This document shows, one piece after another, positions 15,131-16,403 of a stretch of 16,403 bases of DNA. The notes below the pieces were generated by a model, which saw only the letters and a list, made by a program, of their open reading frames with translations, was not told the DNA's origin and searched no databases. The stretch lies in the NCBI RefSeq assembly GCF_048403405.1, contig NZ_CP183130.1, one strand, 5' to 3'. Position 1 is the stretch's first letter. Every line of letters starts with the position of its first letter. This DNA is from Escherichia coli. Its GTDB lineage: Bacteria; Pseudomonadota; Gammaproteobacteria; Enterobacterales; Enterobacteriaceae. Both the position numbers and the translations under genes were made by a program.

Positions 15131-16403
15131 ATGTTTAATCTTCCGGGATGGTTGTTTACCGTTATAGCGCTGGTCCTCACCCTGTTCGTTATCGGGCTGA
15201 TATTTGCCCGCCTGTACCGCCGGGCATCGGCAGAGCAGGCCTTTGTCCGCACAGGTCTGGGAGGCCAAAAAGTGGTAATGAGTGGCGGTGCAATTGTTAT
15301 GCCCATTTTTCACGAAACAATTCCCGTCAACATGAACACCCTGAAGCTGGAAGTCAGTCGTGCAGCGGCTGAAAGTCTCATAACCCGCGACCGCATGCGT
15401 GTTGATGTTGCCGTTGCCTTTTTTCTTCGGGTAAAACCATCAGCCGAAGGAATATCCACTGCAGCCCAGACGCTGGGACAACGCACGCTCACACCTGAAG
15501 ATCTGCGTAGTCTGGTCGAGGATAAATTTGTTGATGCCCTACGGGCCACGGCGGCCAGAATGAGCATGCAGGATTTACAGGATGCCCGCGAGAACTTTGT
15601 TCAGGGTGTGCAGAACACCGTTGCGGAAGACTTATCCAAAAACGGTCTGGAGCTTGAAAGTGTGTCGCTGACAAGTTTCAACCAGACTGCACGGGTACAT
15701 TTTAATCCTGACAATGCCTTTGATGCTGAAGGCCTGACCCTTCTGACCCAGGAAACAGAACGTCGTCGTCGCGAACGCAACGAAGTTGAGCAGGATGTTG
15801 AAGTGGCCATCAGGGAAAAAAACCGGGATGCACTCTCCCGACGTCTGGAGATTGAACAGCAGGAAGCCTTCATGACTCTGGAGCAACAACAACGGGTAAA
15901 AACCCGTACGGCAGAGCAGAGTGCCAGTATTGCTGCTATTGAAGCTGAACGACGTCGTGAAGCAGAGATCCGCGCGAATTCTGGCTGAACGTAAGATAGA
16001 GGAAGCCGAAATCGAACGACAGCAGATAGTGCGTACCCGCCAAGTCGAAGCCGAACGGGAAGTGGCCATACGGGAAATTGAGCAACAGCAGGCAACCGAA
16101 ATCGCCAGCCAGGCCAGAGCCATTGCCGTGGCGGCAAAATCGGAAGAGCAGTCACAGGCAGAAGCCCGGGCAAGTAAAGCACTGGCTGAGGCCGTACAGG
16201 CCCAGCAGGATGTGGAAACCACCCGCCAGACTGCGGAGGCCGACCGTACCAAACAGGTTGCCCTGATTGCTGCTGCTCAGGGAAAGAGGAAGCTGAAACG
16301 AAAGCGGTTGAACTGACGGTTCGCGCACAGGCTGAAAAAGAAGCGAGCCGAACTCCAGGCAGCAGCAATTATTGAACTGGCGGAGGCCACCCGTCAGAAA
16401 GGT
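15131..16403 (+). pseudogene. yqiK: YqiK-like flotillin/SPFH (band 7) protein gene, interrupted by at least three frame changes; continues past the window end
   Basis: First 285 aa (N-terminal TM helix, FARLYRRASAEQAFVRTGLGGQKVVMSGGAIVMPIFHE...) match E. coli YqiK as I recall it. Frame ends at 15988. The coiled-coil continues in frame 0 (15921..16316), then frame 2 (KEEAETKAVELTVRAQAEKEA), then frame 0 again (AELQAAAIIELAEATRQKG) to the window end. Confidence 0.7.

Follow-up and report, generated by a model that had tools for sequence, protein, structure and literature searches.

The yqiK-like gene at the 3' end of the window (the whole 16,403-bp stretch of DNA that was analyzed) changes reading frame three times, which raises the question of whether the gene is decaying beside an intact partner, yqiJ, or whether the sequence as recorded misrepresents the plasmid. 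Members of the YqiK family are SPFH/flotillin scaffolds that have an NfeD-like partner (PMC10434171). The K-12 representative is an SPFH/flotillin inner-membrane protein with the NfeD-like yqiJ gene upstream; its function is poorly defined (PMC10434171; PMC7824781), and the phenotypes reported for it, as cited in PMC10434171 and in PMC7824781 (the latter citing Padilla-Vaca 2019), concern swimming behavior and ampicillin resistance. The yqiK gene has also been noted on blaCMY-2 plasmids (PMC7824781).

The window is a piece of the backbone of an I-complex (IncI/B/O/K) conjugative plasmid, with the gene order stbB/parR-like, parM, DUF1281, impCAB, parA, yagA, proQ/finO-like, repA, NusG-like traB, traC-like, yqiJ, and yqiK. 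The last two genes are located between the traB (NusG-like)/traC regulators and pilI, the latter being seen in a relative. The NfeD-like/YqiJ partner lies directly upstream of yqiK with a 26-nt spacer, an arrangement that places the gene in the YqiK-type SPFH family. The chromosomal pair of K-12 (b3050/b3051) has the same two-gene arrangement and the same 26-nt spacer, but the window copy is plasmid-borne and sits within a transfer-regulation/thin-pilus region. The closest known counterpart is plasmid pHUSEC41-1 (NC_018995, locus L001; IncI1/B/O type), which encodes a flotillin (WP_000482665.1) and its OB-fold/YqiJ partner (WP_000176497.1) and shares with the window the order NusG-like, traC-like, yqiJ, yqiK, followed in pHUSEC41-1 by pilI. 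YqiJ from the window matches the pHUSEC41-1 protein at 100% identity and K-12 YqiJ at 55%, and the exact protein occurs on at least 1000 contigs.

The intact yqiK allele encodes 564 amino acids, with Band_7/SPFH at residues 35–183 and Flot (PF15975) at residues 402–526. The window sequence is 100% identical over residues 1–279 and places the SPFH/Band_7 domain after a putative N-terminal membrane anchor; a hydrophobic N-terminal stretch, WLFTVIALVLTLFVIGLIFA, can be read directly from the translation. The window ends at codon 421 and holds only the first ~20 residues of the Flot domain. Domain calls for both proteins were taken from Pfam; in NCBIfam, YqiK gave only a sub-threshold FloT match (81.5 bits versus a cutoff of 700) and YqiJ had no match. 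Sequence searches of solved structures returned no relatives of YqiK at E ≤ 0.001 and none of YqiJ at E ≤ 0.01. The yqiK locus was matched by 511 plasmid records, mostly from Escherichia and Shigella. The locus is an ordinary, already annotated NfeD-like/SPFH-flotillin pair of IncB/O/K-type I-complex conjugative plasmids.

Alignment to the intact 1695-bp pHUSEC41-1 gene, with the accompanying listing of indels, identified three insertions in the window gene: +G at 15967, +8 bp at 16279–16286, and +G at 16345 (Table 1). Apart from these 10 inserted bases, the DNA is identical to that of pHUSEC41-1, where the gene runs 432 bases beyond the point at which the window cuts it. The initial annotation had read the frame as passing from 2 to 0, from 0 to 2, and from 2 to 0, and the resulting four pieces are borne out by three-frame translation, by the ORF list, and by the alignment. 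It had located the shifts to within a few bases, except that the first lies 4 nt upstream of where it had been put; the comparison with an intact orthologue that it had recommended fixed all three positions exactly. The frame-2 ORF opened at 15131 is closed by a premature TGA at 15986–15988, and a second ORF in frame 0 (15921–16316) carries the continuation of yqiK. Frame 2 is regained between the second and third sites because +1 and +8 sum to +9, and since the stop at 15986 lies between the shifts, the return to the original frame is without functional compensation. All three sites lie outside base runs, and the AGGAAG that follows the 8-bp insert is copied in it imperfectly, as a stutter. 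Two long antisense ORFs (15601–16368 and 15632–16252, both on the minus strand; 255 and 206 aa) lie opposite the Glu/Ala/Arg/Gln-rich coiled coil of yqiK and are most likely a by-product of codon composition, not genes.

Table 1. Features of the yqiJ-yqiK locus and positions elsewhere in the window at which the record differs from its relatives
Feature	Coordinates	Strand	Observation
Start-of-window differences	1–114		3 differences in first 8 bases; +T at 114 breaks the C-terminus of the StbB/ParR-like protein
StbB/ParR-like gene	46–466		Frameshifted by the indel at 114
yagA	7105–8448		+A at 7231, +C at 8295, and -CG at 8419 leave the gene in three frames
proQ/finO-like gene	8802–9405		+A at 8965 splits the gene
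repA	10953–12071	-	+G at 11041 destroys the stop (…APPPH*) and adds 29 aa C-terminally; extension not seen in relatives
+G	12502		Between genes
NusG-like traB	12773–13413		-C at 12868 shifts the N-terminus
+T	13435		Between genes
yqiJ-like gene (NfeD-like partner)	14484–15104	+	ORF of 206 aa, intact; Pfam YqiJ_N 10–112, YqiJ_OB 136–189
yqiK segment A, codons 1–279	15131–15966	+	Frame 2; 100% identical to residues 1–279 of WP_000482665.1
Private insertion 1	15967	+	G in GCAGA[G]ATCC; outside a base run; leads to premature TGA at 15986–15988
yqiK segment B, intact-gene codons 280–383	15968–16278	+	Frame 0; DNA identical to pHUSEC41-1
Private insertion 2	16279–16286	+	8 bp, AGGGAAAG; equivalent placement GAAAGAGG at 16282–16289
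yqiK segment C	16287–16344	+	Frame 2 again
Private insertion 3	16345	+	G in GAAGC[G]AGCC; outside a base run
yqiK segment D	16346–16403	+	Frame 0; window end cuts at ~codon 421 of 564

In its respective frame, each segment is open and gives a plausible coiled coil, so the segments might be separate genuine small ORFs or might be joined by programmed ribosomal frameshifting. However, once the 10 inserted bases are taken out, the DNA is identical to one 1695-bp ORF that runs without interruption in both pHUSEC41-1 and K-12. The intact plasmid allele shares 82% identity with K-12 YqiK in an alignment that is gapless over 541 aa and includes all three insertion sites, and because of this gapless alignment the uninterrupted form of YqiK is the ancestral one. 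The other relatives examined have the same gene length and carry no indel at the shift sites, so there is no conserved shift site for programmed frameshifting to use, and direct reading revealed no slippery heptamer at 15967, 16279, or 16345. The chance that the segments are independent genes or are joined by the ribosome is vanishingly small, and alignment identity to a single conserved ORF rules out both possibilities.

The insertions are not shared by other copies of the gene. Among 265 full-length plasmid matches and 235 full-length records of complete E. coli genomes, the highest identity was 98.0% over 504 bases; this ceiling corresponds to the 10 gap columns in 504, and therefore none of the 265 plasmid and 235 genome records shares even one insertion. 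The initial annotation had left open whether related plasmids carry an intact yqiK, and they do: the gene is a single 1695-bp ORF in pHUSEC41-1, and among full-length records sampled evenly down the ranking, 22 of 23 span exactly 1263 bp (the window spans 1273 bp) with identities of 97.8–99.2%. Examined site by site, the 8-bp insertion was absent in 25/25 covering relatives, and +G 15967 and +G 16345 were each absent in 24/24. No exact match to the pattern created by the 8-bp insertion was present in the viral, genome, and metagenome collections; its intact counterpart, serving as the positive control, was recovered from 22 metagenome contigs. The patterns for +G 15967 and +G 16345 gave no match in the viral contigs, and the two single-G insertions were absent from 21/21 and 21/21 covering metagenome contigs. 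At the protein level, the truncated 285-aa YqiK product did not occur in a collection of ~15 billion proteins, and exact look-up of four further frameshift-derived products in the same collection, including those resulting from the indels at 7231–8965, found none of them.

The variation that exists among relatives provided the baseline against which the ratio of indels to substitutions was judged. Two finished IncB/O-type plasmids (pHUSEC41-1 and L002) differ from each other by 1 SNP and no indels in 7185 bp, and between two finished IncI1/I-gamma-K1-type plasmids (L003 and L004), 8546 bp contain 3 SNPs plus a single 8-bp repeat-unit change. In yqiK itself, the 22 metagenome contigs each carry 0–12 substitutions relative to the window (89 in total) and show a single other indel, located in an A run. 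Natural variation in yqiK is dominated by substitutions, and the private changes of the window are the reverse.

This reversal extends well beyond yqiK. Comparison of window positions 12208–16403 with pHUSEC41-1 gave 0 substitutions and 6 indels, and comparison of positions 1–8438 with L004 gave 2 substitutions and 7 indels. With the best relative chosen for each segment, the substitutions over 16.4 kb come to no more than 4 (3 versus L003 over 1–11155 and 1 versus L002 over 11125–16403). The private indels number ~14 (4, 7, 114, 7231, 8295, 8419, 8965, 11041, 12502, 12868, 13435, 15967, 16279, and 16345), where those at 4 and 7, which no alignment covered with a margin, may alternatively be 3 mismatches within the first 8 bases. 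Positions 4 and 7 aside, each private indel is absent from every relative covering its site, including 3/3 covering relatives for those at 7231–8965; at 12868, the gap falls 5 nt from that position in three relatives, inside the same C run. Insertions account for 11 of 13 of the private indels, and 9 of 13 lie outside base runs. Spontaneous 1-bp indels in E. coli occur mainly in runs.

The initial annotation had described the disruptions as locally clustered in yqiK, with the other long genes (impB, parM, and repA) intact. ImpB and ParM are indeed 100% identical, but RepA has lost its stop and gained 29 aa. Frameshifts are also present in the genes for the StbB/ParR-like protein, YagA, the ProQ/FinO-like protein, and the NusG-like TraB, and confinement of the damage to yqiK does not hold. 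The differences are of one kind, are scattered through unrelated genes that include those for replication and transfer, are private to one record, and consist of indels in a manner unlike natural variation, all of which are features expected of an artifact. Their spacing is uneven. The last 483 bp contain 3 indels versus 0.41 expected from 14 in 16,403 bp (Poisson P(≥3) = 0.009), all of them within the last 440 bases. Three more fall in the first 114 bp, where the initial 8 bases are clearly noisy. From position 115 to position 7230 there are no private indels. If the ends of the window coincide with contig ends, such spacing would suit a sequence whose coverage or quality varies and is poor at the ends, but it is only suggestive of an artifact.

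The same observations bear on genuine pseudogenization, in which the plasmid, or a remnant of it in a host that does not select for conjugation and accessory functions, would be decaying, the three insertions in yqiK would be true, and yqiJ would be orphaned. The frameshifts are present in the sequence as given, and the disruption of several further backbone genes is what would be expected of an element decaying as a whole. Loss of the module also has a natural precedent. NZ_CP095791.1 (L007, IncK2/Z) lacks yqiJ-yqiK between its traC-like gene and pilI and retains, at L007 2193–2373, a 181-bp internal remnant of yqiK that is 100% identical to pHUSEC41-1 (L001 4135–4315); ~78 plasmid records match only this 181-bp part. 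The yqiJK module has demonstrably been deleted naturally in one lineage (IncK2/Z) and is hence dispensable, so real inactivation would not be biologically absurd. However, a decaying pseudogene would be expected to carry disruptions that are inherited or accompanied by substitutions, and here no relative shares them and there are 0 substitutions beside them. Over 4.2 kb, 6 indels are accompanied by 0 substitutions, and over 16.4 kb ~14 indels by no more than 4, against a natural ratio in yqiK of 89 substitutions to 1 indel. Most of the indels are outside slippage-prone runs, none is common to any relative, and only an extraordinary mutation process, restricted to indels, would place three independent events within 380 bp of one gene with no other change. 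We consider genuine decay of this gene unlikely, and the proposal in the initial annotation that yqiK is decaying and yqiJ orphaned finds no support in view of the damage to five other genes, the indels unaccompanied by substitutions, and the lack of the insertions in any other copy examined. The broader version, in which all of the indels are real and an insertion-only decay of an I-complex plasmid or remnant has simultaneously inactivated yqiK, yagA, the ProQ/FinO-like gene, the NusG-like activator, and the partition protein and has extended RepA before any substitution accumulated, is decidedly improbable. If true, it would point to a peculiar mutational process in this replicon that generates frameshifts.

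The window is also mosaic. A junction at ~11125–11155, in the 3' part of repA, separates a left part that is nearly identical to the IncI1/I-gamma-K1-type plasmids (L003 and L004) from a right part that is nearly identical to the IncB/O-type plasmids (L001 and L002), and no record in PLSDB spans the whole window above 98.3% identity. Natural recombination could account for the mosaic, as could chimeric assembly. Within the replication-control region upstream of repA, positions 12149–12300 match L001 and L002 but depart from L003 and L004 in a dense series of substitutions and small indels; this fits the divergence of incompatibility determinants between I-complex groups. Between impB and parA, at positions 5512–5545, TTGTTATC is repeated perfectly in tandem 4.2 times, and relatives have one or two more units. 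The array reflects natural copy-number variation and is possibly a partition site.

The joining of an IncI1/I-gamma-like left part to an IncB/O-like right part, and the lack of an exact match among complete plasmids in PLSDB or RefSeq E. coli, would also be compatible with differences that are real but that come from a laboratory copy (a cloned or amplified fragment) and not from the natural plasmid. Amplification errors, however, are mostly substitutions, and none were seen; mosaic I-complex backbones are common among the plasmid matches, and the sequence bears no sign of a vector. A laboratory origin for the differences is very unlikely.

On the basis of these sequence comparisons, the yqiK frame changes are real in the record but most probably not in the plasmid, the most likely cause being sequencing or assembly error. 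What the comparisons show directly is where the insertions lie, that all relatives examined lack them, that the pattern is indel-only, and that other genes are broken as well; from these findings we infer a technical cause. It is favored because five other genes are hit, including the RepA stop and the NusG-like transfer activator, and such damage is implausible for a functioning, substitution-free plasmid. Base-calling or consensus error in sequence of low coverage or low quality most likely generated the ~14 private, insertion-biased indels across the window, and the three yqiK insertions (+1, +8, and +1 bp) belong to the same window-wide set. As written, the window lacks a single uninterrupted yqiK reading frame, which we attribute to error and not to biology. 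Should the insertions be artifacts, the true sequence at the three sites would be GCAGAATCC, CTCAGGAAGCTG, and GAAGCAGCC.

Artifactual frameshifts in yqiK itself do occur in public data. In the complete plasmid pK38 (LC620534.1, L006), the annotation breaks yqiJ and yqiK up into several small hypothetical proteins, and 4.3 kb of the record differ from pHUSEC41-1 by 10 substitutions and 18 indels. Each of these indels is a deletion, almost always at or beside a homopolymer run, and the fragmentation of these genes is most likely due to uncorrected long-read errors, a pattern expected of nanopore assemblies. The type of error in the window differs, being insertion-biased: its indels are mostly insertions and lie outside runs, so nanopore-type error of the pK38 kind is a poor fit. 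An insertion-biased long-read method or old Sanger sequencing would fit. An 8-bp insertion outside a run is an unusual error for most platforms, and this is a counterpoint to an artifact. The initial annotation had offered assembly or polishing indels in the repetitive coiled-coil region as one explanation. Its appeal to error is supported by the private, indel-only pattern; repetitiveness as the cause was rejected, given that 0/3 sites fall in runs, that similarity to the adjacent sequence is confined to the 8-bp insert, and that nonrepetitive genes are hit too.

These results have consequences for the use of the record. The whole 16.4-kb sequence should be treated as carrying approximately one indel error per kilobase, and the gene calls for yagA, proQ/finO, traB, stbB, and the C-terminus of repA are affected as well. 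Plasmid-borne yqiJK, placed between the transfer regulators and the genes of the thin pilus, is a common locus that has already been annotated, and the window adds nothing on its function. As a matter of quality control, the apparent yqiK pseudogene and the orphaned NfeD partner should not be taken as biology. The real plasmid very likely encodes an intact 564-aa YqiK, which would be the common IncB/O/K allele, and its YqiJ is very likely not orphaned.
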